The translations under genes were made by a program, and so were the position numbers. This document shows positions 1-13,147 of a stretch of DNA of 13,147 nucleotides, one piece after another. Where the stretch lies: positions 1-13,147 of IMG/VR virus record IMGVR_UViG_3300045988_144461, one strand, 5' to 3'. The DNA comes from a virus. Numbering within the stretch: the first letter of the stretch is position 1; each line of letters opens with the position of its first letter. Under the pieces are notes generated by a model, which was not told the origin of the DNA, searched no databases, and saw nothing but the letters and a program-made list of their open reading frames with translations.

Positions 1-44
1 GTACCCCCCTCTCGATAGCAGGCAGGTCACTTTCCCACTTTAAC

Positions 45-68
45 GTGCTAAAGTGCTAAAGTGCTAAA
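45..68 (+). repeat. Tandem 8-bp repeat GTGCTAAA x3 in the left ITR
   Basis: GTGCTAAA occurs at 45, 53 and 61. A further GTGCTAAAGCGG at 96..107 repeats 61..72. An inverted CTTTAG core lies at 81..86. The inverted repeat CACTTTA (36..42) / TAAAGTG (49..55) overlaps the first unit. Confidence 0.9.
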
Positions 69-113
69 GCGGAAGCAATACTTTAGTGTAGTAAAGTGCT
101 AAAGCGGTGAAGT

Positions 114-188
114 GAGTACAAATAATTGGACTTATAGCGAGTACAAATAATTGGACTAATAAAGTGTACAAATAATTGGACTAATCAG
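114..188 (+). repeat. Three tandem 25-bp repeats with core GTACAAATAATTGGACT (left ITR)
   Basis: The 17-bp core is identical at 116..132, 141..157 and 166..182, exactly 25 bp apart. Flanks are partly conserved (GAG/GTG before the core, TAT/AAT after it). Confidence 0.92.
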
Positions 189-288
189 AAAATAAAAATA
201 ATACCTTTACGCAACAGAAAGCAAAAATATTTAGTTAAATAGAATTAACAAATACATAAAAGAAAATATAATGTTTACAATTTATTCA

Positions 289-317
289 TTGACTTATGTG
301 TTGAGGTGTGGTATACT
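289..317 (+). promoter_or_regulatory. SigA/sigma70-type promoter in the left ITR, reading inward
   Basis: -35 TTGACT (289..294), 17-nt spacer, -10 TATACT (312..317). The -10 is preceded by TGg (309..311), which is extended -10 geometry. The predicted start near 324 gives an ~84-nt leader to the ATG at 408. Confidence 0.75.
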
Positions 318-376
318 ATATATAGAGTTAAGGGAGAGGACAAGAAAAGAAAACCTTAACAAACAAAAATTTTAAA

Positions 377-392
377 GTTGCAACGTTGCAAC
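377..392. promoter_or_regulatory. 16-bp palindrome GTTGCAACGTTGCAAC (exact), left ITR leader
   Basis: Exact palindrome. 15 nt separate it from the ATG at 408, and the SD AAAGGA lies in between. Confidence 0.9.
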
Positions 393-407
393 AGAAAGGA
401 TAAAATC

Positions 408-1070
408 ATGGAGAATATTATTAAATCAGAAAGCACAAACATCATGAACACATTTAAGAGTAACGCTCTTAAAGAGAGCACAAGGCGTATCTTTACAAGA
501 ATGGTAAATGTTGAGGATAACAAGAAAGCTATTTGCGTTGACCTTGCGGAGATATACAACAAGAACACATGGAAAGATGATTTCGGTGACTTTGGTGACT
601 ATACAATGACAATGTTTAATATCACAAAGTCAACCGCTAGCCGTATGAGAAGAGTAGCGGACAAGTTTATAACTGATATAAATTCACCGCTTAACGCTGA
701 AATGTACACTTTTAATCAGCTTGCCACTCTTGTAACTCTTGACAATGAAGTTATTGAAAATGGTAACATCACCCCAGATATGACAATAAAGCAATTGAGG
801 GAGTTTGTCAACAGTACAAAGGCTCTTGAAATGAAAGGCACTGAGGAAGAGGAAGCAGAGGAAAAGGAAGAGGAAGCAGAGGAAAAGGAAGAGGAAACAA
901 CAACCGCTGAAAGTTGCAACGTCGCAACCAAGGAAGCCCCGAGAGGAGTTCAGCACTTTGCAACTCTTAAAGACCTTTCAATATGGGTAAATGCACTCAT
1001 GGAGAAAAGAGAGAGCCTTGAAAATATCGATATTTCGTTTGACGTAACAACAAAACACACTGAGTTTTAA
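408..1070 (+). CDS. Early protein, putative HTH DNA-binding protein with an acidic repeat (220 aa)
   Basis: An ATG with SD AAAGGA lies directly downstream of the ITR promoter. The segment WKDDFGDFGDYTMTMFNITKSTASRMRRVADKF looks like a ParB/DUF3102-style helix-turn-helix. The C-terminal half carries EEAEEKE repeats. The TTG at 378 in the ORF track lies inside the palindrome and is rejected as a start. Confidence 0.6.
   Translation: MENIIKSESTNIMNTFKSNALKESTRRIFTRMVNVEDNKKAICVDLAEIYNKNTWKDDFGDFGDYTMTMFNITKSTASRMRRVADKFITDINSPLNAEMYTFNQLATLVTLDNEVIENGNITPDMTIKQLREFVNSTKALEMKGTEEEEAEEKEEEAEEKEEETTTAESCNVATKEAPRGVQHFATLKDLSIWVNALMEKRESLENIDISFDVTTKHTEF
843..896 (+). repeat. Coding tandem repeat (21-nt unit GAGGAAGCAGAGGAAAAGGAA x2 plus partial units)
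   Basis: Units lie at 849..869 and 870..890, flanked by partial GAGGAA copies. They encode EEAEEKE EEAEEKE. Confidence 0.85.
913..928 (+). promoter_or_regulatory. Palindrome variant GTTGCAACGTCGCAAC inside CDS 408..1070
   Basis: 15 of 16 positions match the motif. It lies in coding sequence (..CNVAT..). Confidence 0.6.
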
Positions 1071-1082
1071 TAACTCAGTGTG
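1056..1082 (+). other. Perfect 11-bp stem / 5-nt loop hairpin spanning the stop codon of CDS 408..1070
   Basis: CACACTGAGTT (1056..1066) pairs with AACTCAGTGTG (1072..1082) around the loop TTAAT. No T-tract follows on the + strand. The upstream AAAA would supply a T-tract only for the minus strand. Confidence 0.6.
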
Positions 1083-1104
1083 ATAGAAAGGTAGGTAAAT
1101 AGAA

Positions 1105-1308
1105 ATGAAAAAACTTTTTGTTTGTGAATTGTGCGGAAAGGTTTTTGAAGACGAGCATGAAGCTAGACGTTGCGAAAGAAGCCATTTTATACCGCTGAAT
1201 GTTGCACCAAAGTTTTATGATGAGGGAAAAGTTATTCCCGAATTAGTAACTGTGAGTTTCGGAGTGCATGAAGAAATTTACAGACGTGTAAAAAGTGATA
1301 ACTCATAA
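1105..1308 (+). CDS. Small zinc-finger protein, C2H2-like spacing (67 aa)
   Basis: SD AAAGGTAGG lies 9 nt upstream of the ATG. CELCGKVFEDEHEARRCERSH has the spacing C-X2-C-X3-F-X8-C-X3-H. That is the classical C-X2-C-X12-H-X3-H layout with Cys replacing the first His. Confidence 0.6.
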   Translation: MKKLFVCELCGKVFEDEHEARRCERSHFIPLNVAPKFYDEGKVIPELVTVSFGVHEEIYRRVKSDNS

Positions 1309-1322
1309 AAGGTGGTGTACAT

Positions 1323-1484
1323 ATGAAGATTACAATAAAATCAATTGTAACAATTCTGTTAACTATTATTTTTTGTCTGCTATCACTAGCAGGAAAAATA
1401 ACAAGCGACCAGTATATGACAGTATTTACCACTGTAATTGCATTTTACTTTGGCACTCAGTTTTCAAAGAACGGCAAGGTGTAA
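1323..1484 (+). CDS. Small two-TM membrane protein, putative holin (53 aa; not in the supplied ORF track)
   Basis: I translated it by hand: MKITIKSIVTILLTIIFCLLSLAGKITSDQYMTVFTTVIAFYFGTQFSKNGKV. SD AAAGGTGGTG sits just upstream. It has two hydrophobic segments separated by a short polar turn and a basic C-terminus. It lies immediately upstream of a second holin-like gene and the endolysin. Confidence 0.55.
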   Translation: MKITIKSIVTILLTIIFCLLSLAGKITSDQYMTVFTTVIAFYFGTQFSKNGKV

Positions 1485-1485
1485 A

Positions 1486-1695
1486 ATGTGGAGTTCAATA
1501 ATAGTTGCGGTACTGTCTTTAATAGGTACTTTTATAGGAAGCTATTCGGGGTTTAAGCTAACAGAGTACAGAGTTCAACAGTTAGAAAAACGAGTGGCAG
1601 AACACAATAATTTTGCAAGGCGTTTGCCAGTTGTTGAAGAACAGATAAAGGTAATTAACCATAGATTAACAGATTTAGAGGTGAAAGAAAAATGA
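1486..1695 (+). CDS. Holin-like protein, N-terminal TM helix plus coiled coil (BhlA/UviB-like architecture, 69 aa)
   Basis: Taking the ATG at 1486 (in frame with track ORF 1438..1695) gives MWSSIIVAVLSLIGTFIGSYSGF followed by a charged heptad-like tail. Its stop overlaps the endolysin start (ATGA at 1692..1695). Confidence 0.55.
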   Translation: MWSSIIVAVLSLIGTFIGSYSGFKLTEYRVQQLEKRVAEHNNFARRLPVVEEQIKVINHRLTDLEVKEK

Positions 1696-2360
1696 CGTTT
1701 AAAGAGTATATTTCTAAAAATCTAGGCAAGTCAATCGATTTTGACGGAGTTTTCGGTTTTCAGTGTTGTGATTTAGTCAATGATTATATGCAGAAATGTT
1801 TTAATATTTTCACATACTATCCACACAATTTCAACGCTCAACAGTATTTCACACGTTTTAATGAGGTATTGGCACTTGTAAAGAATTTTACAAAAATTTC
1901 AAATACACCTGAGTTTGTACCAATGCAAGGCGACATTTGTGTTTTCAAGTCGGCTGACAATATCGGGCATATCTCAATAGCAACAGGCGAGGGAAATACA
2001 AGCTATTTTTACAGTTATGACCAAAATTATAACGGGCACAATTTTGTGTCGAAAGAGCGTCACACATATACTAACTTTTTAGGCGTGTTAAGATACAAAG
2101 GTAACGCCCTCGACACTACAGGACTAAAACGTGGAGATAATAATGCAGGCGTATACGCTTATAAAATGTTGTTAAAACTAGCGAAAACTTGTAAAATAAT
2201 TAGTACAAGTGTAGATTTTAACGGAATTTACGGAAAAGGCACTGAAAAGGCTACAAACGAGATTTTGCGAATACTAAAAAAGAAAGAGAACGGAATAGCA
2301 GGAAAACAATTAATCAATGCACTGTATGAAGCTATTCTTAATAACATAGTCAATTTTTAA
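1692..2360 (+). CDS. Endolysin: N-terminal CHAP peptidase domain plus C-terminal PG_binding_1-like domain (222 aa)
   Basis: CHAP-style catalytic Cys context FGFQCCDLVNDY and His context GDICVF..NIGHISIATG. The C-terminal GVYAYKMLLKLA..FNGIYGKGTEKATNEIL..NGIAGKQLINAL matches the peptidoglycan-binding repeat pattern. Confidence 0.85.
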   Translation: MTFKEYISKNLGKSIDFDGVFGFQCCDLVNDYMQKCFNIFTYYPHNFNAQQYFTRFNEVLALVKNFTKISNTPEFVPMQGDICVFKSADNIGHISIATGEGNTSYFYSYDQNYNGHNFVSKERHTYTNFLGVLRYKGNALDTTGLKRGDNNAGVYAYKMLLKLAKTCKIISTSVDFNGIYGKGTEKATNEILRILKKKENGIAGKQLINALYEAILNNIVNF

Positions 2361-2529
2361 AGATAATACGCTTGTGAGCATTTAACAATACAACAGCAAA
2401 TTGATAATAATTAACATTTATAAAATAAGAGTGCTAAACCGATATTGTTATCTAGCGTACATAGCTATTATATATTACGGTCACATAATATTGAACAAAT
2501 TACAAAAAACATGGAAAGAGGTTTTTAAC

Positions 2530-2868
2530 ATGACAGGATTTAATGTGAACATGAGCAAAAAGGATATTTTTAACGCAAAGAGCGGAAGCATTTCAATCAA
2601 GACAGCAGAAGCGAGCGAGTGGCACACTGTTTCGGGGTGTGCAGTGGTAGAAAATGGTGGACTTGACAGGGATAAGAAGCCTTGTGATATTGGTTATATT
2701 GCAACAGATATCGGAGTTTTTGGCTTTTCTTCAAAGGTGTGTATTGACCACATGGAAGAACTTGCGGATATTCTCAGCGACTGTCTGAGTGACGGAGAGG
2801 AAGTAAAGGTACGATTTGTAAAAGGCAAGTCAACAAACGGAGAATTTTATTCAATTCAGATACAGTAA
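2530..2868 (+). CDS. Putative single-stranded DNA-binding protein (phi29 p5-like, 112 aa)
   Basis: ATG with SD GAAAGAGG. IFNAKSG.. near the N-terminus and ..EEVKVRFVKGKSTNGEFYSIQIQ at the C-terminus parallel my recollection of phi29 p5 (..IFNAQTGG.. / ..FKVKVVQGTSSKGNVFFSLQLSL). The size is also similar. This is recalled similarity and has not been verified by a search. Confidence 0.5.
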   Translation: MTGFNVNMSKKDIFNAKSGSISIKTAEASEWHTVSGCAVVENGGLDRDKKPCDIGYIATDIGVFGFSSKVCIDHMEELADILSDCLSDGEEVKVRFVKGKSTNGEFYSIQIQ

Positions 2869-2885
2869 ATAACAAAATCGGCATG

Positions 2886-2912
2886 ACGTGGTAACAAAAA
2901 AAGTTGCCACGT
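2886..2912 (+). promoter_or_regulatory. 10-bp hairpin whose 3' arm is the first 10 nt of the palindrome variant
   Basis: ACGTGGTAAC (2886..2895) pairs with GTTGCCACGT (2903..2912) across an A7 loop. There is one T-G pair, which is a legal wobble only in + sense RNA. Confidence 0.6.
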
Positions 2913-2918
2913 TGCAAC
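2903..2918 (+). promoter_or_regulatory. Palindrome variant GTTGCCACGTTGCAAC upstream of the portal gene
   Basis: 15 of 16 positions match. 18 nt separate it from the ATG at 2937, with the SD AAAGGGGTGAG in between. It is part of the duplicated leader module. Confidence 0.85.
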
Positions 2919-2936
2919 CGATAAAGGGGTGAGAAA

Positions 2937-3899
2937 ATGAATTCAAAAATAAAGCCGTGGGAATGGAGCGAGTTTGGAGTATCAAACATAGACAAAACAC
3001 AATTGACAAATTATTATTATAAAATGTTGTTAAATCGTGTTATTAATATGTTTACATGGAAAGGCTTGCCAGATACCATTGACGAACAAGTAATGAATTT
3101 TTGGCTTTTTGTAACAGGGCGTGTTGTTTTCACGGAATTTAACGGAAAATTATACGCACTAAACGGAAATTTCGGCGGTTATCCTAATGAGTATTATTTA
3201 CCTACAGAATTTATTGTTGCTAATCCAATTTTAGGAAGTAAAACTGTGAAGCTAGACGTTGACGGAGTTGCAATGTTTAACAGTGATACCGACAAATATC
3301 CTACACAAACAATGACGGGCGGTCTATATCCTATACTAACATTAACCGCAAATATGCTGGCTGATTGTGTGGTAACAATTTCTAGTGCGTTGAAAAATGG
3401 TAGAGTTCAAACAGCGTTTTTGTGTAAAGACGATACAGTGAGAATTGCTGGGGAAAAAGTTCTAAAACAGTTATACAACGGTAATCCAGCGGTCATGATT
3501 GACGACACTATATTAAATTGTATCACGCCAATAAAAATGGCAGATAATACAAGTGTTGCTACAATTCTACAGCAGACCGTCGAAACGTATCAATTTTGGC
3601 TTGCAAATTTTTACAACTCAATCGGAGTAAATGCAAATTTCAACATGAAAAGAGAGCGACTAAACACGGCAGAAGTTAACATTAATGATAGTGCTTTGTT
3701 TGTGAATGTTGTAAATATGCTAAACAACAGACAGCAGGCACTTGAAAAAATTAACAAAATGTTCGGTACAAATATAACTGTTGAAATTTCGGAAGAATGG
3801 AAAGACTTGACAGAGGAAGAGCCTACAGAGGAAGAGCCTACAGAGGAAGAGCCTACAGAGGAAGAGGAAAAAGACAATGAAAAAATTGATAACGCTTAA
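2937..3899 (+). CDS. Portal / upper collar connector protein (phi29 gp10-like, 320 aa)
   Basis: MFTWKGLPDTIDEQ..GRVVF and NMKRERLNTAEVNINDS..ALEKINKMFGTNITVE parallel phi29 gp10 (..FEWENLPPTIN.., ..NLEKKERMVTDEVSSND..ACEKINELYGLNVKV). An acidic EEEPT x3 tail sits at the C-terminus. Confidence 0.85.
   Translation: MNSKIKPWEWSEFGVSNIDKTQLTNYYYKMLLNRVINMFTWKGLPDTIDEQVMNFWLFVTGRVVFTEFNGKLYALNGNFGGYPNEYYLPTEFIVANPILGSKTVKLDVDGVAMFNSDTDKYPTQTMTGGLYPILTLTANMLADCVVTISSALKNGRVQTAFLCKDDTVRIAGEKVLKQLYNGNPAVMIDDTILNCITPIKMADNTSVATILQQTVETYQFWLANFYNSIGVNANFNMKRERLNTAEVNINDSALFVNVVNMLNNRQQALEKINKMFGTNITVEISEEWKDLTEEEPTEEEPTEEEPTEEEEKDNEKIDNA
3813..3866 (+). repeat. Coding tandem repeat (15-nt unit GAGGAAGAGCCTACA x3 plus a partial unit)
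   Basis: Units at 3813..3827, 3828..3842 and 3843..3857, followed by a partial unit. They encode EEEPT EEEPT EEEPT EEEE at the portal C-terminus. Confidence 0.9.
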
Positions 3900-4554
3900 T
3901 GAATGGATAGAATTATTCCCCTCTATAAATACTATTTTTGACAAGGTATCAACAGACTTGAAATTATTTACAATTTTTACATCTGCCGAAATGTTCTCAT
4001 ATTTTGTAAACAAGTTTGGTGAACGTGATTTTTATAAATATTATGATAATGAAAATGACGGAAGTAATACAAAAATGGTAAAACAGGCAAGCGACTATAT
4101 AGCATTATATGGTAAATCACATAAATATGAATATGATAAGCTTGTTGACACACTGTCATTAGAATATAACCCGATTGAAAACTATTCCATGACAGAAAAG
4201 GGAACAGACACAAGAACTCCGAACATTACACAAACAAACAAAGGAGTAAATACAAATACAGTCGGAGTTGATACGTCAATTACAACAGGAAAAACAACAT
4301 TTGATAAATCGGACAGTTTTATTAATGATACAAAGACCACCAATACAGGCACAAACACCGATACGCAAGATATAAATACTACAGTTACAACAGCAGGAAA
4401 CGAAAAAACTGTACATGAATTTACAAGAAGCGGTAATATAGGCGTTACCACGTCGCAACAGATGATTGAAAGTGAAAGACAGCTTGCAATGTTTTCTGTA
4501 GTTGACCTATTTATCAAGGCTATAGCCGATATAATTCTAATCGGTGTATATTAA
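3877..4554 (+). CDS. Virion structural protein, candidate lower collar / head-tail adaptor (225 aa)
   Basis: The ATG at 3877 has SD GAGGA 8 nt upstream and overlaps the portal gene by 23 nt. It sits next to the connector gene. It has a Thr/Asn-rich middle region and a ..GNIGVTTSQQMIESE.. segment. The function is assigned by position only. Confidence 0.4.
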   Translation: MKKLITLNEWIELFPSINTIFDKVSTDLKLFTIFTSAEMFSYFVNKFGERDFYKYYDNENDGSNTKMVKQASDYIALYGKSHKYEYDKLVDTLSLEYNPIENYSMTEKGTDTRTPNITQTNKGVNTNTVGVDTSITTGKTTFDKSDSFINDTKTTNTGTNTDTQDINTTVTTAGNEKTVHEFTRSGNIGVTTSQQMIESERQLAMFSVVDLFIKAIADIILIGVY

Positions 4555-4556
4555 AA

Positions 4557-4572
4557 GTTGCAACGTTGCAAC
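4557..4572. promoter_or_regulatory. 16-bp palindrome (exact) upstream of CDS 4590..4880
   Basis: Exact copy. It starts 2 nt after the stop codon at 4552..4554 and lies 17 nt before the ATG at 4590. Confidence 0.9.
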
Positions 4573-4589
4573 TAGAAAGAGAGGAATAT

Positions 4590-4880
4590 ATGCAAAAAGT
4601 GAGAAGTCCTACATATGCAGAAAATTATATCAACCTTGCGAGGACAGTTGTATTAAATGTAATTACTGACACTCTGCAACACAAGGAAGATTTAAAAGAC
4701 TATATTTTATATAGTGATGATTTTATGTTTTGGTTATCCCTTGCCAATTGGCTAGATTATGAAAATGTTATTAAAGATAAATTTTCACATTTCAAAGGGA
4801 TTGACAGAACGATAAGAAAAAAATTAAACACATACTATCGCATAAAAGGCGAGGAAATGAAAGCGAGGAAAAATTTATGA
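4590..4880 (+). CDS. Hypothetical protein (96 aa); scaffolding protein is possible by position only
   Basis: ATG with SD AGAGAGGA. Its stop overlaps the capsid gene start (ATGA at 4877..4880). phi29 gp7 scaffold (98 aa) occupies the same position before gp8, but I see no sequence resemblance. Confidence 0.35.
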   Translation: MQKVRSPTYAENYINLARTVVLNVITDTLQHKEDLKDYILYSDDFMFWLSLANWLDYENVIKDKFSHFKGIDRTIRKKLNTYYRIKGEEMKARKNL

Positions 4881-6013
4881 AAGTAACACAGATAGCAACA
4901 ATTTTGAATGAAGCTCAGAAAGAAATTGTCGGTGAAACCGCCATAACAACTGAAAACCTTGAAAACGTCGTCGATATGGGTAAGCAGATTTTGGGAGCGA
5001 CAGACGTTGATAATTATGTCCGCAAGCTGATTGATAAAGTTGGCAGAATGATTTTTGTTGACAGAGTTTACAACTCGACAGCCCCCGATATACTTGCCGA
5101 CAACTGGGAATATGGTTCAGCAATGCAGAAAGTCAGGTGTGAAATGCCTGATGCAGTTGAGAATGATAGCTGGAAATTGACAAGCGGACAGAGTTATGAC
5201 CCATTTGTATTTACAGCCCCTAATGTTCAGTCAAAATTTTACGACAGTAAGGTAACATATGAAGTGCAGATGTCATTTACAGAAATGCAGGTTAAGAGTG
5301 CATTTAATTCGCCCGCTGAAATGAACAGCTTTTTTGCTATGATTGAAAATCGTATCAGATTTAAACTCACTCTGTCAAATGATATACTTAAAACACGCAC
5401 TGTTAATAATCTCATTGCTGAGAAGATACATGGCAAAAACAACGTTGTTAATCTTTTGACAATGTATAATGCAGAATTTACACAAACCCTGACCGCAAGT
5501 CATGCACTTATGGACAAGGACTTTTTGAGGTATGCAATTGGCAAAATCAAGGAGTATATCAAATATATTCAGCGTCCGTCAACTCTATTCAATGACGGTG
5601 GGTATACTACATTTACCCCTGAGAGTGATATGAAAATGGTTCTTCTGTCAAGATTTGTAAATACGGCTGAGGTTTATCTACAGAGTGACACATTCCACAA
5701 TGACCTTGTAAAGCTAAATGGATATTCGGAAGTACCATATTGGCAGGGTAGCGGAAATAGCGAGAATTTCGACTTTGCAGAAATTTCCAAAATTAATGTT
5801 ACAACCGCAAGCGGTAATGCAGTTACTCAGACAGGTATTATAGGCACTATTTTTGACAAAGATGCTTGTATGATTTGTAACGCAAATCCGAGAGTTACAA
5901 GTATTTACAACCCAAAGGGTGAATACTGGAATTATTTCTATAAGTATGATGCAAGCTATTTCAATGATACTATGGAAAATTGTGTGGTATTTATAGTAGC
6001 AGATGCTGGATAA
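4877..6013 (+). CDS. Major capsid protein (phi29 gp8-like, 378 aa)
   Basis: The C-terminal DKDACMICNANPRVTSIYNPKGEYWNYFYKYDASYFNDTMENCVVFIV parallels phi29 gp8 [50 protein letters not shown] GAGGA lies 8 nt upstream. Confidence 0.85.
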   Translation: MKVTQIATILNEAQKEIVGETAITTENLENVVDMGKQILGATDVDNYVRKLIDKVGRMIFVDRVYNSTAPDILADNWEYGSAMQKVRCEMPDAVENDSWKLTSGQSYDPFVFTAPNVQSKFYDSKVTYEVQMSFTEMQVKSAFNSPAEMNSFFAMIENRIRFKLTLSNDILKTRTVNNLIAEKIHGKNNVVNLLTMYNAEFTQTLTASHALMDKDFLRYAIGKIKEYIKYIQRPSTLFNDGGYTTFTPESDMKMVLLSRFVNTAEVYLQSDTFHNDLVKLNGYSEVPYWQGSGNSENFDFAEISKINVTTASGNAVTQTGIIGTIFDKDACMICNANPRVTSIYNPKGEYWNYFYKYDASYFNDTMENCVVFIVADAG

Positions 6014-6037
6014 CAGCACAACAAAATAATAGTTAAA

Positions 6038-6065
6038 ACGTGGTAACTCAAAAAAGTTGCCACGT
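6038..6065 (+). promoter_or_regulatory. Second copy of the 10-bp hairpin overlapping the palindrome variant
   Basis: ACGTGGTAAC (6038..6047) pairs with GTTGCCACGT (6056..6065) across the loop TCAAAAAA. The arms and the T-G pair are the same as at 2886..2912. Confidence 0.6.
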
Positions 6066-6071
6066 TGCAAC
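6056..6071 (+). promoter_or_regulatory. Palindrome variant GTTGCCACGTTGCAAC upstream of CDS 6092..6583
   Basis: Same variant as at 2903. 20 nt separate it from the ATG at 6092, with the SD AGAGGGTGAG in between. Confidence 0.85.
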
Positions 6072-6091
6072 TATATAGAGGGTGAGAAAAA

Positions 6092-6583
6092 ATGCCAATT
6101 ATAACAACATATCAATGCACACAAGATGTGCGAACAGTTCAAAAAACATTAACAAATGCAATTGATTATAATTGTGAAATACTGGATACTATGAACAGTT
6201 TTTCACCGCACATAAGATTATTTTGCACGTCTGAAACGTTTAACGCAAATATGGCATATATACCATTTTTTGATAGATATTATCATATAATTTCAGCGGA
6301 CGTTGAAAGTGCTGAAACAATTATTTTACAGTGTGAATTTGATATTTTTACCTATTCAACAGCATTACTAAACAGCACATTTCTAGTTACTAGAAATGAA
6401 AATATCGGAAGTACATATATTCCTGATACAATGTTACCATTAAAAGGGAATAAGGAAATGAAAGTAATAGAATTTACTGGTGGAGATTTTAACCTTGACA
6501 CGGCTTCAGCAAATAGTTACAATTTTGTGCTAAATGTGGCAGGCGGTGGAAGCAATCAAGGAACATCAGAGAATGGAGCGTGA
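6092..6583 (+). CDS. Hypothetical virion protein, possible tail component (163 aa)
   Basis: Strong SD and the duplicated late leader lie upstream. ANMAYIPFFDRYYHIISADVESAETIILQCEFDIFTYS loosely resembles the N-terminal region of phi29 gp9 (..[43 protein letters not shown]..). This is recalled similarity and is unverified. Confidence 0.4.
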   Translation: MPIITTYQCTQDVRTVQKTLTNAIDYNCEILDTMNSFSPHIRLFCTSETFNANMAYIPFFDRYYHIISADVESAETIILQCEFDIFTYSTALLNSTFLVTRNENIGSTYIPDTMLPLKGNKEMKVIEFTGGDFNLDTASANSYNFVLNVAGGGSNQGTSENGA

Positions 6584-6590
6584 TTAACAA

Positions 6591-8621
6591 ATGAAATTAA
6601 ATACCGATTATTGGAGCGAGGGTTATCCTTATCTTACGTTTGATGACGGAAACGTGTTGACGATAGGACGATATGTTAGTACAATTGAAAGTCGATATCC
6701 AAGCCATTTGAAGCTAAATGAAGAGTTTGACCAATCTATTTTAATTGGCACAAATTTCAAAAACCCTAATTCAGTATTGTTATTTATTAACAATTTGAAT
6801 AGTACAAAGTGGGTTGAAACAGGGTTCACTGAACCTATTGATACCGGGGTTTATTTAGGTGCTTTACATGGCAGTAACTACGGCAGTCTATTTGAATGGT
6901 ATCGGAATAGAATTGCATACGGACAAACAGAAATATATACACAAATTCGTCCCGTGTTGAAATTTCCGTTTAAATCGTTATGTTTTTTAGTGCGAATAGG
7001 TGCGACTAATCCTACAGAATATATTGAATATCCCGTCGACGAATATTTCGGAACTGAAAACGAAAAAACCCACCCTACAATTACTACAATATCATTTAGA
7101 CCATATTTTGGTAATAATAAAAATAGAGATTATTATAAAAACGGGTGGGCAAATTCATTCATACCGCTACTATACGGAACAATAACAAATATTTCTAAAG
7201 AGGGGCTTTATCAAGAAGATATTTTCCCCTACTATAATAATGGTAATGAATTAACATATGGTCAAAAACCCAATAGCACATTTCATAGTAGCGGTCTTAC
7301 TAGCCATGAAGCAGTTTTTGAATGTCCGTATGGTAGTAAATTGTGGGAATTAGTCGATAATGGTACACAAGTTTATACTAAATTTAAAGGCACTCGTGCG
7401 GACGTTTTGAAAATAATTGCAAATACAGGGTTCTTTTGTGCGACTACATTTGACAGTGTGCAACATGCTGACCTAAAAAATATTACAGACCCACATATAA
7501 TTATAGGAAAAATGAATGATGAGGGGGCTATATCTGATACACCTCTAGAAGGAAAAGATATAAACGATAATACCCACCAAACTACATGGGATAAGACAGA
7601 AGATACAGGCAACGGCTTCAACGGAGTTGAAAACACTGACCCTAACAATTATACTGATAAAATAGACTTGAATAAACCTACACTATCTAATGTCAATGTT
7701 TTCAATAGGTCATTTGCGGTCACGTCAACTAATGTGCGACAACTTGCCGATTTTTTATGGAACGCTGACGAAACAAAATTTAACGAAATTGTGAAAGGTT
7801 TAGCCTTAATGGGCGAAAATCCTATGAACGGAATTATCGACTTGCGGTTGTTTCCGTTTAATGTGGCACATAAAAATTCCGCAACGGAAGCAGAGCCTAT
7901 TGTAATAGGCAGAACAAACACCGGTGTAAATGGTATTAAACTAACTGAAAATGTAAACAGTTTAATTGATTTAGGTGAATGTACATTTTTTACTAAATTT
8001 AAAAATTTCCTAGATTATGAACCATACACAACAGCCCAATTATATATACCATATATTGGCGTTGTACCTGTTTCGACAGCGGAGTTTATGGGTCACAAAA
8101 TTTCAGTAAAAATGATAGTTGACTATACAACAGGGGCAGGAACAGCAATTGTATTTAAAGACGATATACCATTTATTTATAGGAATGGAGTAGTAGGTGT
8201 ATCAATTCCAATGACAGGAACAGACAGCGCAAGTTATGCAAGCACAGTTGTGGGTAATGTAGTAAACGGGGCAATGGGCATTGCAAGTGCTACAGTTACG
8301 GACAGTATGAGCGGTTTAGTTAATAGTGCTAATCAGATGTATAGTGGTTTTGCAACGCCAGTACAATATCAATCAGCCAGTGCAAGTTCTCCGTCTGTTG
8401 CAACGTGGCAACCACAGAAGTGTTATTTTATTATTGACAGACCTATTTTAAATGTACCTGAAAATTACGGGCGTACTATAGGATATGCTTGCGAAATAAC
8501 TGGAAAACTATCTGATTTTAAGGGTTTTACAGTTGTTAGCAATCCTGAAATAAATTTCAGGTGTACAGACAGCGAAAGACAATATATAGTAAATATGTTA
8601 CAAGGCGGTGTATTTGTATGA
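6591..8621 (+). CDS. Tail protein; the C-terminal part is phi29 gp9 tail-knob-like, the N-terminal ~330 aa are of unknown function (676 aa)
   Basis: The Gly/Ala/Ser-rich hydrophobic stretch SYASTVVGNVVNGAMGIASATVTDSMSGLVNSANQMY is followed by CYFIIDRP..YGRTIGYACEITGKLSDFKGFTVVSNPEINFRCTDSERQYIVNMLQGGVFV. This parallels the gp9 membrane-active loop and the gp9 C-terminus (..[53 protein letters not shown]). Confidence 0.55.
   Translation: MKLNTDYWSEGYPYLTFDDGNVLTIGRYVSTIESRYPSHLKLNEEFDQSILIGTNFKNPNSVLLFINNLNSTKWVETGFTEPIDTGVYLGALHGSNYGSLFEWYRNRIAYGQTEIYTQIRPVLKFPFKSLCFLVRIGATNPTEYIEYPVDEYFGTENEKTHPTITTISFRPYFGNNKNRDYYKNGWANSFIPLLYGTITNISKEGLYQEDIFPYYNNGNELTYGQKPNSTFHSSGLTSHEAVFECPYGSKLWELVDNGTQVYTKFKGTRADVLKIIANTGFFCATTFDSVQHADLKNITDPHIIIGKMNDEGAISDTPLEGKDINDNTHQTTWDKTEDTGNGFNGVENTDPNNYTDKIDLNKPTLSNVNVFNRSFAVTSTNVRQLADFLWNADETKFNEIVKGLALMGENPMNGIIDLRLFPFNVAHKNSATEAEPIVIGRTNTGVNGIKLTENVNSLIDLGECTFFTKFKNFLDYEPYTTAQLYIPYIGVVPVSTAEFMGHKISVKMIVDYTTGAGTAIVFKDDIPFIYRNGVVGVSIPMTGTDSASYASTVVGNVVNGAMGIASATVTDSMSGLVNSANQMYSGFATPVQYQSASASSPSVATWQPQKCYFIIDRPILNVPENYGRTIGYACEITGKLSDFKGFTVVSNPEINFRCTDSERQYIVNMLQGGVFV
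8397..8412 (-). promoter_or_regulatory. Palindrome variant in inverted orientation inside the tail-knob CDS
   Basis: GTTGCAACGTGGCAAC is the reverse complement of the GTTGCCACGTTGCAAC variant. It lies in coding sequence (..VATWQP..). A TTGCAACG half-site lies at 8350..8357. Confidence 0.6.
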
Positions 8622-9166
8622 ATGAACATTTTGCAAGCGGTTTAACAAACGAACAGCTAAAAGCTGAAATTTTAAGACAAGGGCGTAAAGCAAATTTACG
8701 CCTTAGTCAATTGAAAAAAAGTGGAATGTATAGCAAAAATCCTATAATTTCTAGTAAATGGAATACGTTTCTACATGAAAGTAAATTTTCAACAAAAAAG
8801 AATTTTTTTAAGACAGGTACAAAAGGAGAAACAAGAGCAGAATTGTTAAAACATTATGTTCAGATTAGACAGTTTTTAGGGCAGAAAACAACAGTAAAAG
8901 AAACAAAGTCTATTATGTCAAAACACGCAAAACGTTTAAATATTTCTGAGGAAAATGTTGACAGAGTTTTAACGATTTTCGGAAATAGTGGAATAAGTGC
9001 AGAGTTACCGAACAGCGATTTTGTACAACAATTTATTGCAGAAATGGTTGAAAGCGGTTTTAATGATAATGAAATAACATCATTATTAAATACACTTGAA
9101 AATTCAGCACAAACACAAAATGAAATGTATGATTTAATGCGTGAGCAAATGCAAATGCTTGAATAG
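8618..9166 (+). CDS. Candidate terminal protein (182 aa)
   Basis: The ATG at 8618 overlaps the tail gene stop (ATGA). The gene lies directly upstream of the protein-primed DNA polymerase. The basic N-terminal KANLRLSQLKKSG .. TRAELLKHYVQIRQF resembles phi29 TP KAKIARTKKKYG .. TRAQFNKWKEQASSF. This is recalled similarity and is unverified. Confidence 0.45.
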   Translation: MNEHFASGLTNEQLKAEILRQGRKANLRLSQLKKSGMYSKNPIISSKWNTFLHESKFSTKKNFFKTGTKGETRAELLKHYVQIRQFLGQKTTVKETKSIMSKHAKRLNISEENVDRVLTIFGNSGISAELPNSDFVQQFIAEMVESGFNDNEITSLLNTLENSAQTQNEMYDLMREQMQMLE

Positions 9167-9181
9167 TTGCAACGTTGCAAC
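9166..9181. promoter_or_regulatory. 16-bp palindrome (exact) upstream of the DNA polymerase gene
   Basis: Exact copy. Its first base is the last base of the TAG stop at 9164..9166. 23 nt separate it from the TTG start at 9205. It is flanked by TTGAAT (9159..9164) and TATTAT (9182..9187). Confidence 0.9.
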
Positions 9182-9204
9182 TATTATCAAAGGGAGTGTA
9201 ATAG

Positions 9205-11343
9205 TTGATAAATGTAAATGATTTTGATTTTGATATTCTAAAGAATAGTAATTTACAGACAGTTACAACTCGTACAAAGGATAATCAATATATCGAATAT
9301 TACAACGCTCCGTTTGCATTTGATATTGAAACAAGTTCATTTTATGAGGGTGATAATAAAAGAGCGTGTATGTATATTTTTATGTTTGCATTAAATGGAA
9401 ATTATGTATACGGCAGAACATGGGAAGATTTTGATTTTACATTAAATAAGTTAAAAGAAGTGCTACAATTAAATGAATACAGAAGAATTATAATATATAT
9501 TCACAATTTAGGTTATGAATTTCAATTTTTAATCGGTCATGAACGTTTTAAAGACGTTTTCGCAAGAAACGCACGTCACCCTATTAAGTGTACTATGAAT
9601 GAATGTTTTGAATTAAAATGTAGTTTAATGTTAAGCGGTATGAGTTTAGCAAAAACCGCAGAAGATTTAACAAGCGTAAAAATACAAAAATTAACAGGTG
9701 ATTTGAATTATAAACTTTTAAGAACATGGAAAACGACACTGACAAAAGAAGAGTTAGGATATTGTGAACATGATGTCAAAATTTTACATTATTTTATACT
9801 CGAAGAAATGGCAAAAAATGATAATGATATAACAAAAATTCCATTAACTAAAACAGGATATGTTAGAAAATATTGCCAAAACTACATTAAGAAAAATACA
9901 TATTATCCAAAATATAGAGAAAAGATTAAAAAGATAGCCCCAGTCGATAAAGATTTATTTTGTCTATTGCATAAAAGTTTCATGGGTGGATATACACACG
10001 CTAATTATATGTATGTAGGAATGGTTTTAGAAAATGTTGCTAGTATCGATTTTACAAGTTCTTATCCGTCTGTTATGATTAGAAAAAAATATCCAATGCA
10101 ACCATTTACAAAAATTCACATAAAAGATTTAAAAGATTTTAGATACTGTATTAAAAATTATCCTTGCGTTTTTGAAGTGGAATTAACTAATGTTATTGCT
10201 AAAAAATGTAATCACATTTTATCAAGGTCAAAATGCTCTGTATGTGATAATGCCGTTGTTGATAATGGTAGAATTGTATCGGCAGATAGAGTATTTACAT
10301 ATTTTACAGATATTGATTTTAAGGACTTTGAGCAATTCTATTCATACGAGCATTTGTCAATCGGTAAATTTTACGCTTCAAGTTATGGATATTTGCCTAA
10401 ACAAATTATAGAATGTGCATTGAAATTTTATAATGATAAAACCACTTTAAAAGGTGTAAAGGGCAAAGAAGTAGAGTATTTAGTCGGTAAAGGTATGCTG
10501 AATAGTTTATTCGGAATGTGTGTGACCAATCCAGTAAACGATGATATTATTTTTAATGGGAAAGAATGGAGTACAGAAAAGAAAGATATAACGGAAGCAT
10601 TACAAGAAAATTACATAAAGAATAAAAAACAAGTGCTAGTATACCAGTGGGGAGTATGGATTACGGCATGGGCAAGACACGAACTTTTTAAAGGTATTTT
10701 AGAAATTGATGAAGATGTTATTTATTGTGATACAGATAGCATAAAATTTTTAAACTATGAAAATTATAAAAACTGGATAAATGAATATAACAAAAATTGT
10801 ATTGATGAGATTAACACGGCTTTAAGCTATTATGAAATTGATTTAAATTTAGCTAAACCTAAAACAATTAAAGGGGCTGAAAAGCCTTTGGGGGTATGGG
10901 ATTTTGAGGGAATTTACACAAAATTTAAAACGTTAGGTGCAAAGCGTTATGCCTATGAACAGAACGGCAAATTTAATATTACTGTTTCGGGACTAAATAA
11001 AAAGTGTGCCGTTCCATATATAGTTGCAACGTTGCAACCATTTGAGTTTTTTGACAATGAAATGTATATTCCGAAAGAGTATACAGGCAAAAACACATTA
11101 ACATATATTAATGACCCTTACAAAATTATAGTAAAAGACTATCAAGGAAATTATGCAGAAGTGGCAGAAAATAGCTACATTCACATGGAAGAGCAAGATT
11201 ATAATATGTCACTATCTGAACAGTTTATATATTATTTAATGTGTGGCACAAATTTTGGTGGCGGTGCAAAAGAGCATACATTATTTGAAAAAAGTCAAGA
11301 ATTGGCTACAAATTTTTGGGAGTGTGATTTTAATGAAAAATGA
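9205..11343 (+). CDS. Protein-primed family B DNA polymerase (712 aa)
   Basis: Exo I FDIETS, Exo II HNLGYEFQFL, Exo III YCEHDVKIL, motif A DFTSSYPSVM, motif B KGMLNSLFGM, motif C YCDTDSIKF and KxY LGAKRYAY are all present. The TTG start at 9205 is required because the first in-frame ATG lies after Exo I. SD AAGGGAG lies 8 nt upstream. Confidence 0.95.
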   Translation: MINVNDFDFDILKNSNLQTVTTRTKDNQYIEYYNAPFAFDIETSSFYEGDNKRACMYIFMFALNGNYVYGRTWEDFDFTLNKLKEVLQLNEYRRIIIYIHNLGYEFQFLIGHERFKDVFARNARHPIKCTMNECFELKCSLMLSGMSLAKTAEDLTSVKIQKLTGDLNYKLLRTWKTTLTKEELGYCEHDVKILHYFILEEMAKNDNDITKIPLTKTGYVRKYCQNYIKKNTYYPKYREKIKKIAPVDKDLFCLLHKSFMGGYTHANYMYVGMVLENVASIDFTSSYPSVMIRKKYPMQPFTKIHIKDLKDFRYCIKNYPCVFEVELTNVIAKKCNHILSRSKCSVCDNAVVDNGRIVSADRVFTYFTDIDFKDFEQFYSYEHLSIGKFYASSYGYLPKQIIECALKFYNDKTTLKGVKGKEVEYLVGKGMLNSLFGMCVTNPVNDDIIFNGKEWSTEKKDITEALQENYIKNKKQVLVYQWGVWITAWARHELFKGILEIDEDVIYCDTDSIKFLNYENYKNWINEYNKNCIDEINTALSYYEIDLNLAKPKTIKGAEKPLGVWDFEGIYTKFKTLGAKRYAYEQNGKFNITVSGLNKKCAVPYIVATLQPFEFFDNEMYIPKEYTGKNTLTYINDPYKIIVKDYQGNYAEVAENSYIHMEEQDYNMSLSEQFIYYLMCGTNFGGGAKEHTLFEKSQELATNFWECDFNEK
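11023..11038. promoter_or_regulatory. 16-bp palindrome (exact) inside the DNA polymerase CDS
   Basis: Exact copy in coding sequence (..VATLQP..). It lies 294 nt upstream of the packaging ATPase ATG at 11333. Confidence 0.65.
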
Positions 11344-12424
11344 ATACTATTCACTTAAAAAGATTAATAAGTTAAATGCTCTATACAATTTGATTATAGG
11401 ACAACGTTCAAACGGAAAAACTTATGCAGTGTGTGAGCAGGAAATAAAAGGATATTTTAAAGAGGGCTTTAGGCTTGCGTATATAAGACGTTATGATGAA
11501 GAAATTATGCCTAAAAATATACAAAATTTATTTAAACCACATTCAGCTTTAATTGAAAAATTATCTAATGGGCAATTTAACAGCACTATATACAAGAATA
11601 GAGAATTTTATCTATATAATACAAATACGGAAGAAAAAAGTGAACAAAGTTTTTGCAAGTGTTTTTCTCTAAATGCGTGGGAACGCACAAAAGGTGCTGA
11701 TAACGGCTATTTCAAATATATATTATTTGATGAATTTATGACACGTTCATTTTACCTTAATAATGAATTTGTTACATTCACTAACTTATTGTCGTCTATT
11801 ATTCGTGACAGGGATAACACAATTATTTACATGATAGCAAATACTGTCAATCAATATTGCCCATATTTTGCGGAAATGGGATTAGGTAAAATTTCAGATA
11901 TTAAACAAGGTGACTTGAAATTATTTACATATGGAGATAGCGAATTAACATTAGCACTCGAGTATTCAGACAGTAAAGGGCAGACTGGAAAAGTTAGTAA
12001 ATATTTCGCTTTTGATAATCCACAATTAAAAATGATAACAACAGGACAGTGGGAAATTAAAAACTACCCCCACGCACCATTTAAAATTAAAAAAGAAGAT
12101 ATTGTATACAGGGCTTATATATTTTTTGATAATGATATTATTGCTTGCAATATTGTACATTATAATAATAGTGTATTTCTATTTTTTAACATTCAAACGA
12201 AAACGGAAAATCTAAATTTAAAAAATAGAATTGTATACAGTTTTGAAACAGATACCAATCCTTTACACGTCCAATCACTGGCGGAACAGCCTACAGACGT
12301 ACATAAACTTATTAATAATTTAATAACGTTTAATCGTGTATTTTATGCAGATAATTCAGTGGGTGAAATTGTTAGAAACTGGATAAACGCACAAAGCAAA
12401 CACGCTATAAGTATAAGAGCATAA
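11333..12424 (+). CDS. DNA packaging (encapsidation) ATPase, phi29 gp16-like (363 aa)
   Basis: Walker A LIIGQRSNGKTYA, LAYIRRY and Walker B ILFDEFM parallel phi29 gp16 (VIGARGIGKSYA, FIYVRRY, IVFDEFI). The ATG at 11333 overlaps the polymerase gene by 11 nt. Confidence 0.9.
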   Translation: MKNEYYSLKKINKLNALYNLIIGQRSNGKTYAVCEQEIKGYFKEGFRLAYIRRYDEEIMPKNIQNLFKPHSALIEKLSNGQFNSTIYKNREFYLYNTNTEEKSEQSFCKCFSLNAWERTKGADNGYFKYILFDEFMTRSFYLNNEFVTFTNLLSSIIRDRDNTIIYMIANTVNQYCPYFAEMGLGKISDIKQGDLKLFTYGDSELTLALEYSDSKGQTGKVSKYFAFDNPQLKMITTGQWEIKNYPHAPFKIKKEDIVYRAYIFFDNDIIACNIVHYNNSVFLFFNIQTKTENLNLKNRIVYSFETDTNPLHVQSLAEQPTDVHKLINNLITFNRVFYADNSVGEIVRNWINAQSKHAISIRA

Positions 12425-12430
12425 AAATAT

Positions 12431-12463
12431 CCCCATGAGTTTTCTCATGGGGCTTTTTGTTTT
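12431..12463. terminator. Bidirectional intrinsic terminator between convergent genes
   Basis: CCCCATGAG (12431..12439) pairs with CTCATGGGG (12444..12452) around the loop TTTT, followed by CTTTTTGTTTT on the + strand. The upstream TAAAAATAT gives a T-run for the minus strand. Confidence 0.85.
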
Positions 12464-12740
12464 ATATCACATATTCTCTTAATACTGTTTGTACTGTTAT
12501 CATAGTAACACGATAATCATCATAATAAGCGTCCCTTATTAAATCAATAATATTTTCATATCTGAAATAGCCGTCGCTTAAACGCTCATTGCAATTTTCT
12601 TTATACCATATCCAGCTAACAGTCTGAACCTCTTTATTTTTCCTATCGTATATAATTGTTATATATTTTCTATTATCTAACTTATTCCACTCTCCTATAG
12701 CTTTTTTAATTCCTTTAATCTCAGTGCCATTAATTTTCAT
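12462..12740 (-). CDS. Right-end early protein of unknown function (92 aa)
   Basis: It uses the ITR-borne promoter, palindrome, SD and ATG, all identical to those of the left-end gene. Sequence: MKINGTEIKGIKKAIGEWNKLDNRKYITIIYDRKNKEVQTVSWIWYKENCNERLSDGYFRYENIIDLIRDAYYDDYRVTMITVQTVLREYVI. I recognise no motif. Confidence 0.7.
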   Translation of the reverse strand: MKINGTEIKGIKKAIGEWNKLDNRKYITIIYDRKNKEVQTVSWIWYKENCNERLSDGYFRYENIIDLIRDAYYDDYRVTMITVQTVLREYVI

Positions 12741-12755
12741 GATTTTATCCTTTCT

Positions 12756-12771
12756 GTTGCAACGTTGCAAC
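12756..12771. promoter_or_regulatory. 16-bp palindrome (exact), right ITR leader
   Basis: Mirror of 377..392. It lies 15 nt upstream (minus strand) of the start codon at 12738..12740. Confidence 0.9.
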
Positions 12772-12830
12772 TTTAAAATTTTTGTTTGTTAAGGTTTTCT
12801 TTTCTTGTCCTCTCCCTTAACTCTATATAT

Positions 12831-12859
12831 AGTATACCACACCTCAACACATAAGTCAA
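12831..12859 (-). promoter_or_regulatory. Identical SigA-type promoter in the right ITR, reading inward
   Basis: Mirror of 289..317: -35 at 12854..12859 and -10 at 12831..12836 on the minus strand. It would drive the CDS 12462..12740. Confidence 0.75.
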
Positions 12860-12959
12860 TGAATAAATTGTAAACATTATATTTTCTTTTATGTATTTGT
12901 TAATTCTATTTAACTAAATATTTTTGCTTTCTGTTGCGTAAAGGTATTATTTTTATTTT

Positions 12960-13034
12960 CTGATTAGTCCAATTATTTGTACACTTTATTAGTCCAATTA
13001 TTTGTACTCGCTATAAGTCCAATTATTTGTACTC
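12960..13034 (-). repeat. Mirror copy of the three 25-bp repeats (right ITR)
   Basis: Reverse complement of 114..188, as part of the perfect ITR. Confidence 0.92.
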
Positions 13035-13079
13035 ACTTCACCGCTTTAGCACTTTACTACACTAAAGTATTGCTTCCGC

Positions 13080-13103
13080 TTTAGCACTTTAGCACTTTAG
13101 CAC
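13080..13103 (-). repeat. Mirror copy of the GTGCTAAA x3 repeat (right ITR)
   Basis: Reverse complement of 45..68, as part of the perfect ITR. Confidence 0.9.
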
Positions 13104-13147
13104 GTTAAAGTGGGAAAGTGACCTGCCTGCTATCGAGAGGGGGGTAC

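Follow-up and report, generated by a model that had tools for sequence, protein, structure and literature searches.

We analysed the complete linear genome of a phi29-like phage (IMG/VR record IMGVR_UViG_3300045988_144461, positions 1 to 13,147; this whole stretch of 13,147 base pairs (bp) is called the window below) and found two paralogous two-tier hairpins in its leaders, each with 11-12 bp in the upper and 5-6 bp in the lower helix and with an A-rich loop. One (site 1, 2877-2922) lies between an SSB-like gene and the portal gene, and the other (site 2, 6029-6074) between the major capsid gene and the tail block. Both are RNA structures of the + strand that are conserved among relatives, and they take the positions at which more distant relatives carry canonical intrinsic terminators. 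We propose, with a probability of about 0.5, that the leaders act as constitutive intercistronic barrier hairpins and are functional successors of these terminators. The 3' arm of each hairpin also belongs to a 16-bp palindrome dispersed over the genome, which is probably a signal separate from the hairpin and read on double-stranded DNA (dsDNA).

Architecture of the two leaders

The two leaders share all the elements listed for them in the initial annotation, which we could locate at both sites on the + strand: the stretch AACAAAAT (2871-2878 and 6020-6027), an upstream arm ACGTGGTAAC (2886-2895 and 6038-6047), a loop, the palindrome variant GTTGCCACGTTGCAAC (2903-2918 and 6056-6071) and GGGTGAGAAAA..ATG (start codons at 2937 and 6092). 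From the 16-mer to GGGTGAG the spacer had been given as 5-6 nucleotides (nt); it is in fact 7-8 nt. A covariance model built from site-1 homologues only matches site 2 with 51 bits (E-value 9e-14), which joins the two leaders as paralogues.

The predicted stem of 10 bp with one U-G pair is recovered by RNAfold, which lengthens it and adds the lower helix, absent from the initial annotation. At site 1 the upper helix has 11 bp (2885-2895/2903-2913), its 5' arm being GACGUGGUAAC and its loop AAAAAAA (2896-2902), and the lower helix pairs AUCGG (2877-2881) with CCGAU (2918-2922); the first 11 nt of the 16-mer are the 3' arm of the upper helix, and its final base opens the lower helix. At site 2 the upper helix has 12 bp (6037-6048/6055-6066, from RNAfold and covariation) around the loop TCAAAAAA, and the lower helix pairs AUAGUU (6029-6034) with AACUAU (6069-6074), so that the AAC of the 16-mer (6069-6071) falls in the lower helix. 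The lower helix differs in sequence between the two leaders. Minimum free energies are -21.9 (site 1) and -24.0 kcal/mol (site 2), with z = -4.5 and -5.95, respectively, and none of 200 shuffled sequences was as stable; the upper helix with short flanks gives -17 to -19 kcal/mol (windows 2880-2925 and 6032-6078). The Shine-Dalgarno regions, GGGGTGAG with the portal start codon (2926-2939) and GAGGGTGAG with the start codon of the 163-aa tail-block gene (6078-6094), follow the structures and are unpaired in every fold of both leaders.

The covariance model of the hairpin has a weak third match (24 bits) at 4419-4463, inside a 225-aa gene. It covers GTTACCACGT (4444-4453), which is exactly complementary to the upstream arm, and the equivalents in L006 and L012 (relatives are given by such labels) reach only 16 bits; the match is probably a decayed or chance copy. 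A role of AACAAAAT as a -10 element, by which the hairpin would come to lie at the 5' end of a transcript, was considered and rejected: the stretch has no matching -35 element and is not conserved in L114 and L026, and the window reads CACAAC at site 2 where relatives read TATAAC.

Conservation of the hairpin on the + strand

About 30 near-complete relatives were collected from IMG/VR and assemblies, the labelled records being human gut metagenomes; some 60 or more contigs of the clade are seen in Logan and ENA. For site 1 we compared 17 distinct sequences from the clade of the window and from L114, L115, L026 and L125, four genomes that have the same SSB-plus-leader module with portal proteins just 45% identical; L136 gave an 18th. 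All 11 pairs of the upper helix are intact in 17 out of 17 sequences. Seven of these pairs vary, each on one side only, and every variant still forms a G-U or Watson-Crick pair on the + strand: A or G opposite U, C or U opposite G, one A-to-G change on the motif side (L012), and one pair that is found as C-G, U-G and U-A. The 5' arm varies only where its partner is G or U, and the four arm positions where a transition would break pairing are invariant. On the - strand of the same sequences only 8-11 of the 11 pairs survive, and the mean fold energy is -18.1 +/- 2.3 kcal/mol, as compared with -21.3 +/- 1.4 kcal/mol on the + strand. The argument for an RNA-level structure of the + strand, drawn earlier from a single wobble pair, is supported by the relatives.

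Site 2 adds changes on both sides of a pair. Four pairs have changed in this way, and the covariation score is 0.287 versus 0.151 for shuffled alignments, with none of 500 shuffles as high; the covariation that the initial annotation proposed to look for is thus present at site 2, whereas site 1 has one-sided, wobble-compatible changes only. In L022 the site-2 helix has 12 bp with three G-U pairs, and the centre of its arm is complementary to the centre of its motif, whereas the centres of the other palindrome copies in this genome vary freely. The loop is 4-8 nt long among close relatives, which fits a hairpin and rules out a DNA site of fixed spacing. Such strand-specific maintenance of pairs is what marks a structured RNA under selection, here in few independent lineages.

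Comparison of the window with the L026/L114 lineage gives 88-90% identity for the SSB-like gene together with the portal leader (2530-2939; 841-1249 in L026 and 836-1246 in L114). Set against the 45% identity of the adjacent portal proteins, this points to module exchange with a breakpoint at the leader or the Shine-Dalgarno region.

Junctions, terminators and proposed function

A canonical intrinsic terminator follows the capsid gene in every more distant relative examined (L019, L023, L025-L032, L113, L114, L116, L117, L134 and L135), and two of them (L116 and L135) have one before the portal gene as well. The clade of the window and L022 have at these junctions a motif-derived hairpin without a U tract. 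The hairpins themselves are of the intrinsic-terminator kind, being stable and G+C-containing with an upper helix of 11-12 bp; the sequences 3' of the stems are GCAACCGAUAAAGG and GCAACUAUAUAGAGG. A third intercistronic hairpin without a U tract (1056-1082, + strand, 11 bp) spans the stop codon of a gene that we call gene A and ends 22 nt before the next start codon, and two of its pairs have changed on both sides among relatives. Hairpins are found 14-25 nt upstream of most start codons in the window. The hairpin at 1056-1082 has a good U tract on the - strand and none on the + strand.

We infer a function in message stability or attenuation, as well as the identity of the protein that would bind the palindrome. 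A barrier hairpin of this kind would weakly attenuate read-through into the next cistron, and/or it would keep exonucleases away from the flanking messages, at the 3' end of the upstream one and the 5' end of the downstream one. In this way it would adjust how strongly the flanking genes are expressed relative to each other, with the Shine-Dalgarno region left free. The 16-bp palindrome that supplies the 3' arm would be a separate dsDNA signal, probably bound by a protein with a ParB-like helix-turn-helix (HTH), so that two signals would be fused in a compact genome and one sequence would evolve under two constraints at once.

Several observations weigh against this proposal or against parts of its evidence. 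No U tract (defined as five or more U within 8 nt, beginning 0-2 nt beyond the stem) follows either stem on the + strand, and a terminator scan lists neither site on this strand, which makes classical termination unlikely. L136 has a single C.A mismatch in site 1, giving an informal tally of seven changes compatible with the + strand versus one compatible with the - strand. Because the changes at site 1 are all one-sided, the shuffle control is uninformative there, and site 2 is represented by three haplotypes only (the window type, a type B found in most clade members, and that of L022). Variation in the lower helix slightly favours the - strand; the sixth lower-helix pair at site 1, for example, is C-G, U-A or C.A among relatives. 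The portal leader of L022 is without the upstream arm. Finally, L113 and L117 have zero intergenic space before the portal gene, and the element is therefore not essential to this phage group.

The dispersed palindrome and its candidate binder

The palindrome GTTGCAACGTTGCAAC occurs 10 times in the window at up to three mismatches, compared with 0.06 occurrences expected. A consensus copy (377-392) lies in the left inverted terminal repeat (ITR), in the 5' untranslated region of gene A, 15 nt before its ATG and ~50 nt downstream of a strong promoter. Besides the leaders, other copies are found at 913, 4557, 8397, 9166, 11023 and 12756, and a weak copy is found at 4444. Start codons follow 14-23 nt after the end of six copies, the simple palindromes at 4557 and 9166 form hairpins of 7 and 9 bp, respectively, just ahead of their genes, and nearly every gene block is marked by the palindrome.

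Variants of the palindrome are found at the same gene junctions elsewhere: GTTGCC-N4-GGCAAC in L022, GTTGCG-N4-CGCAAC in L117 and GTGCGAATTCGCAC in L116. Depending on the lineage, positions 6 and 11 are A-T, C-G or G-C, and L022 and L117 leave the central 4 nt free. The palindromes of L117 and L116 adjoin a canonical terminator instead of replacing it. A copy number far above chance and variants at equivalent junctions in three other genomes are typical of a dispersed operator, and the variants of simple copies have no strand bias, which suggests recognition as dsDNA. A literature search for the 16-mer itself found no paper.

The base of the palindrome that was first noticed, the C of GTTGCC in the leaders, does pair with a G of the upstream arm on the + strand, as the initial annotation had it; its interpretation as a change that breaks the symmetry of the 16-mer is the less likely one, since the palindrome consensus of L022 is GTTGCC..GGCAAC. 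Judging from this consensus, it is more likely that the C is ancestral and was locked by pairing while the other copies in the clade became GTTGCA..TGCAAC. In type B, both sides of this pair at site 2 have changed together.

Two copies inside genes deserve comment. The copy in the gene for the B-family DNA polymerase (11023-11038) is kept in L022 (10261-10276) by way of a Leu-to-Gly substitution (VATLQP to VATGQP), and this alignment points to selection that acted on the DNA motif at the expense of the protein sequence. The 16-mer at 8397-8412, which codes for VATWQP in a large tail gene, is identical at all synonymous sites in L026 (6607) and L027 (6448). We set this copy aside as evidence of regulation, as the same 16-mer is present in these two genomes, which have no others; this copy may be the ancestral one from which the motif arose, or else be under a separate constraint.

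Gene A (408-1070, + strand) encodes the candidate binder. Its structure model is all-helical and confident (mean predicted local distance difference test score, pLDDT, of 81), and all 17 of the best Foldseek matches are DNA-binding domains of ParB, Spo0J or Noc, with weak E-values of 0.09-3; the protein also has an acidic, Glu-rich linker. Sequence searches with gene A against Pfam, NCBIfam and the PDB returned nothing usable, and a profile search against the PDB gave coiled-coil false positives only. The family DUF3102 is touched by one out of 58 gene A homologues and is the name that one source gives to a homologue, and the literature on DUF3102 yielded nothing informative. Homologues of gene A are present in the clade of the window, L116 and L117, and absent from palindrome-free genomes. 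On the other hand, L004, L018, L124 and L022 retain palindromes without an intact gene A, and for this reason we no longer treat gene A as the proven binder: the modelled fold and the distribution of the gene are only suggestive, and a host protein is a possible binder as well.

Two distant homologues of gene A are fused to an RNA polymerase alpha C-terminal domain (alpha-CTD). The left ends of the genomes that have lost the gene differ: in L004 (1-200) a deletion runs from the ITR palindrome exactly to the copy inside gene A and removes most of the gene, in L022 (38-160) gene A is reduced to a 40-codon remnant, and in L018 and L124 gene A is missing and the right end bears an additional small gene that has a palindrome of its own. 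Recombination may take place at the palindromes.

Alternative explanations

The initial annotation proposed two mutually exclusive folds, the palindrome pairing either with the upstream arm or with itself, and read the leaders as an attenuator or a protein-gated switch. In such a switch the palindrome would self-pair, be bound by protein or pair with the arm, and would thereby gate transcription or translation of the portal and tail blocks. It is true that the 3' arm coincides with the left half of a probably protein-bound motif, that the upstream arm occurs only at the two leaders preceding structural blocks, and that in type B relatives the arm belongs to a second, degenerate 16-mer. The energies, however, leave little room for the alternative fold: the enforced self-hairpin has -5.9 (site 1) and -9.3 kcal/mol (site 2), a cost of ~16 kcal/mol relative to the long hairpin, and its ensemble fraction is ~1e-11 at both sites of the window, as compared with 1e-6 for type B. 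Kinetics favour the long hairpin too, since transcription reaches the upstream arm first. It also survives the loss of the palindrome. In L026 and L125 the right half of the palindrome is gone (GTTACCACGTTCTGTC) and both helices are kept, the U-G pair having become U-A and the sixth lower-helix pair C-G; both helices are likewise kept in L114 and L115, whose copy has decayed by one mismatch; and this lineage has neither dispersed palindrome copies nor gene A. In L027 an unrelated 11-bp hairpin is found at the same position. The terminator scan found no terminator to be gated downstream of either leader, and the Shine-Dalgarno region is never sequestered. The idea of two competing folds is therefore not sustained, nor is that of an attenuator or riboswitch, since there are neither alternative folds of comparable energy nor conserved alternatives with a terminator or a sequestered Shine-Dalgarno region as output, and we regard a switch as quite improbable. 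We find it equally hard to favour a functional fusion of the two signals, in which the product of gene A or a host protein of the Spo0J/Noc type, sitting on palindrome DNA, would change what happens to RNA polymerase or to the nascent hairpin at exactly these two leaders; if this were true, the leaders would be factor-dependent attenuators that time the late genes of a lytic phage without its own sigma factor or antiterminator.

Processing by RNase III (or RNase Y) is another way to use such a hairpin, with putative cleavage separating early and late messages and leaving hairpin-protected ends. By analogy with known sites, which have about two turns of dsRNA helix broken by an internal loop, this is conceivable: the two-tier build, with an asymmetric internal loop between the upper (11-12 bp) and the lower helix (5-6 bp), recurs in paralogous, intercistronic positions of what would be polycistronic phage mRNA, and an A/U-rich single-stranded stretch lies directly 5' of the structure. 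Nevertheless, the 16-18 bp in two helices are at the short end of the range for RNase III, and the internal loop (2-3 by 2-4 nt) is not conserved, with AU, AA, AG or UGU opposite GCA, ACA or CU, and we consider processing unlikely. The hairpins might instead terminate antisense transcription, as each is followed by a U-rich run on the - strand, where the AACAAAAT stretch common to both leaders reads AUUUUGUU; the terminator scan lists 1082-1056, 2919-2902, 6072-6055 and 4573-4556 on that strand, and C.A and A.C mismatches of the lower helix turn into G-U pairs there. This too is a decidedly weak candidate, given that the changes in the upper helix produce one to three C.A mismatches on the - strand (L006 and L012 keep eight out of 11 pairs), that the A-rich flank is lost at the third hairpin in L011 and L013, that the + strand is A-rich along the whole window, and that the sole - strand gene is already closed by a bidirectional terminator (12431-12452). 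Very unlikely, in our estimation, is an explanation on the DNA level, in which the upstream arm would be an auxiliary half-operator for cooperative binding of the palindrome binder at both structural leaders. In sequence the arm is indeed a diverged version of the 16-mer's right 10 nt, and the upstream copy in type B (GTTAAAACGTTGCAAC) is two mismatches from the consensus. But the site-1 arms drift from the motif (e.g. GTGGTGGC, with four out of eight positions mismatched) while RNA pairing is kept, the spacing between arm and motif differs by 4 nt among close relatives, the matched arm and motif centres of L022 would be unexpected where the centres of other copies vary freely, and the arm is kept in the L026/L114 lineage without dispersed palindromes and gene A.

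Comparison with known systems

The barrier hairpins that we favour are closest to the intrinsic terminators that follow capsid genes, such as Tphi of T7 and those of the relatives themselves, with which they share the genomic position. Like these, they are stable, G+C-containing hairpins that come directly behind the stop codon of the upstream gene, at a distance of 10-25 nt from the next Shine-Dalgarno region, and protection of the 3' end of the upstream mRNA would be expected of them; unlike these, they have no U tract on the + strand, are built in two tiers and have half of a dispersed palindrome as 3' arm.

Intercistronic processing hairpins are known from the RNase III sites of T7 (R0.3, R1.1 and others) and the sites of Bacillus phage SP82. 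These sites share with the leaders the repeated, paralogous arrangement between cistrons just upstream of genes and the internal loop; the leaders differ in their shorter helix (16-18 bp) and in an internal loop that is not conserved. In Firmicutes, 5' stem-loop stabilizers and processed operon hairpins are known from the aprE leader, ermC and cggR-gapA. There, as here, a stable hairpin lies a few nt upstream of a strong, unpaired Shine-Dalgarno region, and different stabilities of the cistrons would be expected. No conserved promoter, however, precedes the hairpins described here, so that a processing event would be needed to expose them.

The arrangement of two paralogous leader hairpins with A-rich loops heading two gene blocks is also reminiscent of nutL/nutR (boxB) in phage lambda and of putL/putR in HK022. 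In contrast to boxB, which has an exact pentaloop (a 5-nt GNRA-like loop on a 5-bp stem), the loop is variable (4-8 nt) and the stem has 11-12 bp; there is also no boxA, no downstream terminator to override and no match to an Rfam family. Family searches of the proteins of the window found no N-like protein.

As for the palindrome, the OB sites of KorB in plasmid RK2 represent the dispersed operator type. Dispersed operator sites are also found in mycobacteriophage L5, where they are called stoperators (PMC9283540), and phi29 itself carries five parS sites for host Spo0J (PMC2731898). The palindrome resembles all of these in the many copies of one short site over a small replicon, mostly in short intergenic leaders, in its lineage-specific variants and in having a candidate binder with a ParB/Spo0J/Noc-like HTH fold. 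It is symmetric, unlike stoperators, which are asymmetric and oriented; it is like parS in being a 16-bp site with an ACGT centre, and it is not parS, as each half is one base longer. The predicted all-helical product of gene A is without the ParB N-terminal domain, and the binder here is putative, several genomes keeping the sites without an intact gene A.

Genome context

The window has ITRs of 417 bp (1-417 and 12731-13147) and holds all genes except one on the + strand. They include genes for a CHAP endolysin (1692-2360), a phi29-type connector or portal protein (2937-3899), a phi29-type major capsid protein (4877-6013), a protein-primed B-family DNA polymerase (9205-11343) and a gp16-type packaging ATPase (11339-12424). 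Megablast of the window against 50,697 phage records gave no match, and the nearest cultured phages by capsid protein (32-46% identity) are ~11-kb podoviruses, namely Acinetobacter phage Phanie, Salmonella phage astrithr and Amedibacillus phages. A pattern scan of genome contigs for a host had no match either.

Rfam 15 had no match anywhere in the window at E-values up to 1, including the phi29 packaging RNA (pRNA), nut/put-like and leader families; pRNA is thus not detected by Rfam in a genome with a gp16-type ATPase and a phi29-type connector. A non-coding stretch of ~170 nt (2361-2529) lies upstream of the SSB-like gene, and L005 has an extra palindrome copy there (2366). As a pRNA-like structured RNA, the region 2361-2532 was rejected because of its fold z-score of -0.69.

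Each ITR contains two strong sigma-70-type promoters (245-272 and 289-317), the palindrome, a Shine-Dalgarno region and an ATG, so that the two terminal genes (gene A on the + strand and a 92-aa gene on the - strand) share promoter, leader and start codon. It also contains tandem 8-nt repeats (GTGCTAAA, three to four copies) and three 25-nt repeats (AGTGAGTACAAATAATTGGACTTAT) at 37-77 and 111-185, mirrored at the right end, which are likely binding sites for factors associated with the replication origin or the terminal protein. The bidirectional terminator at 12431-12452 is strong (9 bp, six of them G-C pairs) and lies between the convergent ATPase gene and 92-aa gene. In-frame acidic repeats are found at the C-terminus of the portal protein (TEEEP, about four times, 3810-3889) and in gene A (Glu-rich, 840-895), and both differ in length among relatives.

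Implications

The element belongs to a familiar class and reveals no new regulatory principle; its distinguishing feature is the fusion with a dispersed parS-like palindrome, and in practice it is of use mainly for annotating the genomes of an uncultured phage group and for designing expression experiments on it. For the ~13-kb phi29-like phages of the human gut, with genomes coded almost entirely on one strand, it gives a first testable picture of the layout of expression, in which the canonical terminators that relatives have at the same junctions are replaced by hairpins without a U tract. The two leaders would also be a clean natural case of RNA pairing and DNA recognition acting as constraints on one sequence, for which the leaders of L026 and L125, where the RNA constraint alone remains, provide a natural control.

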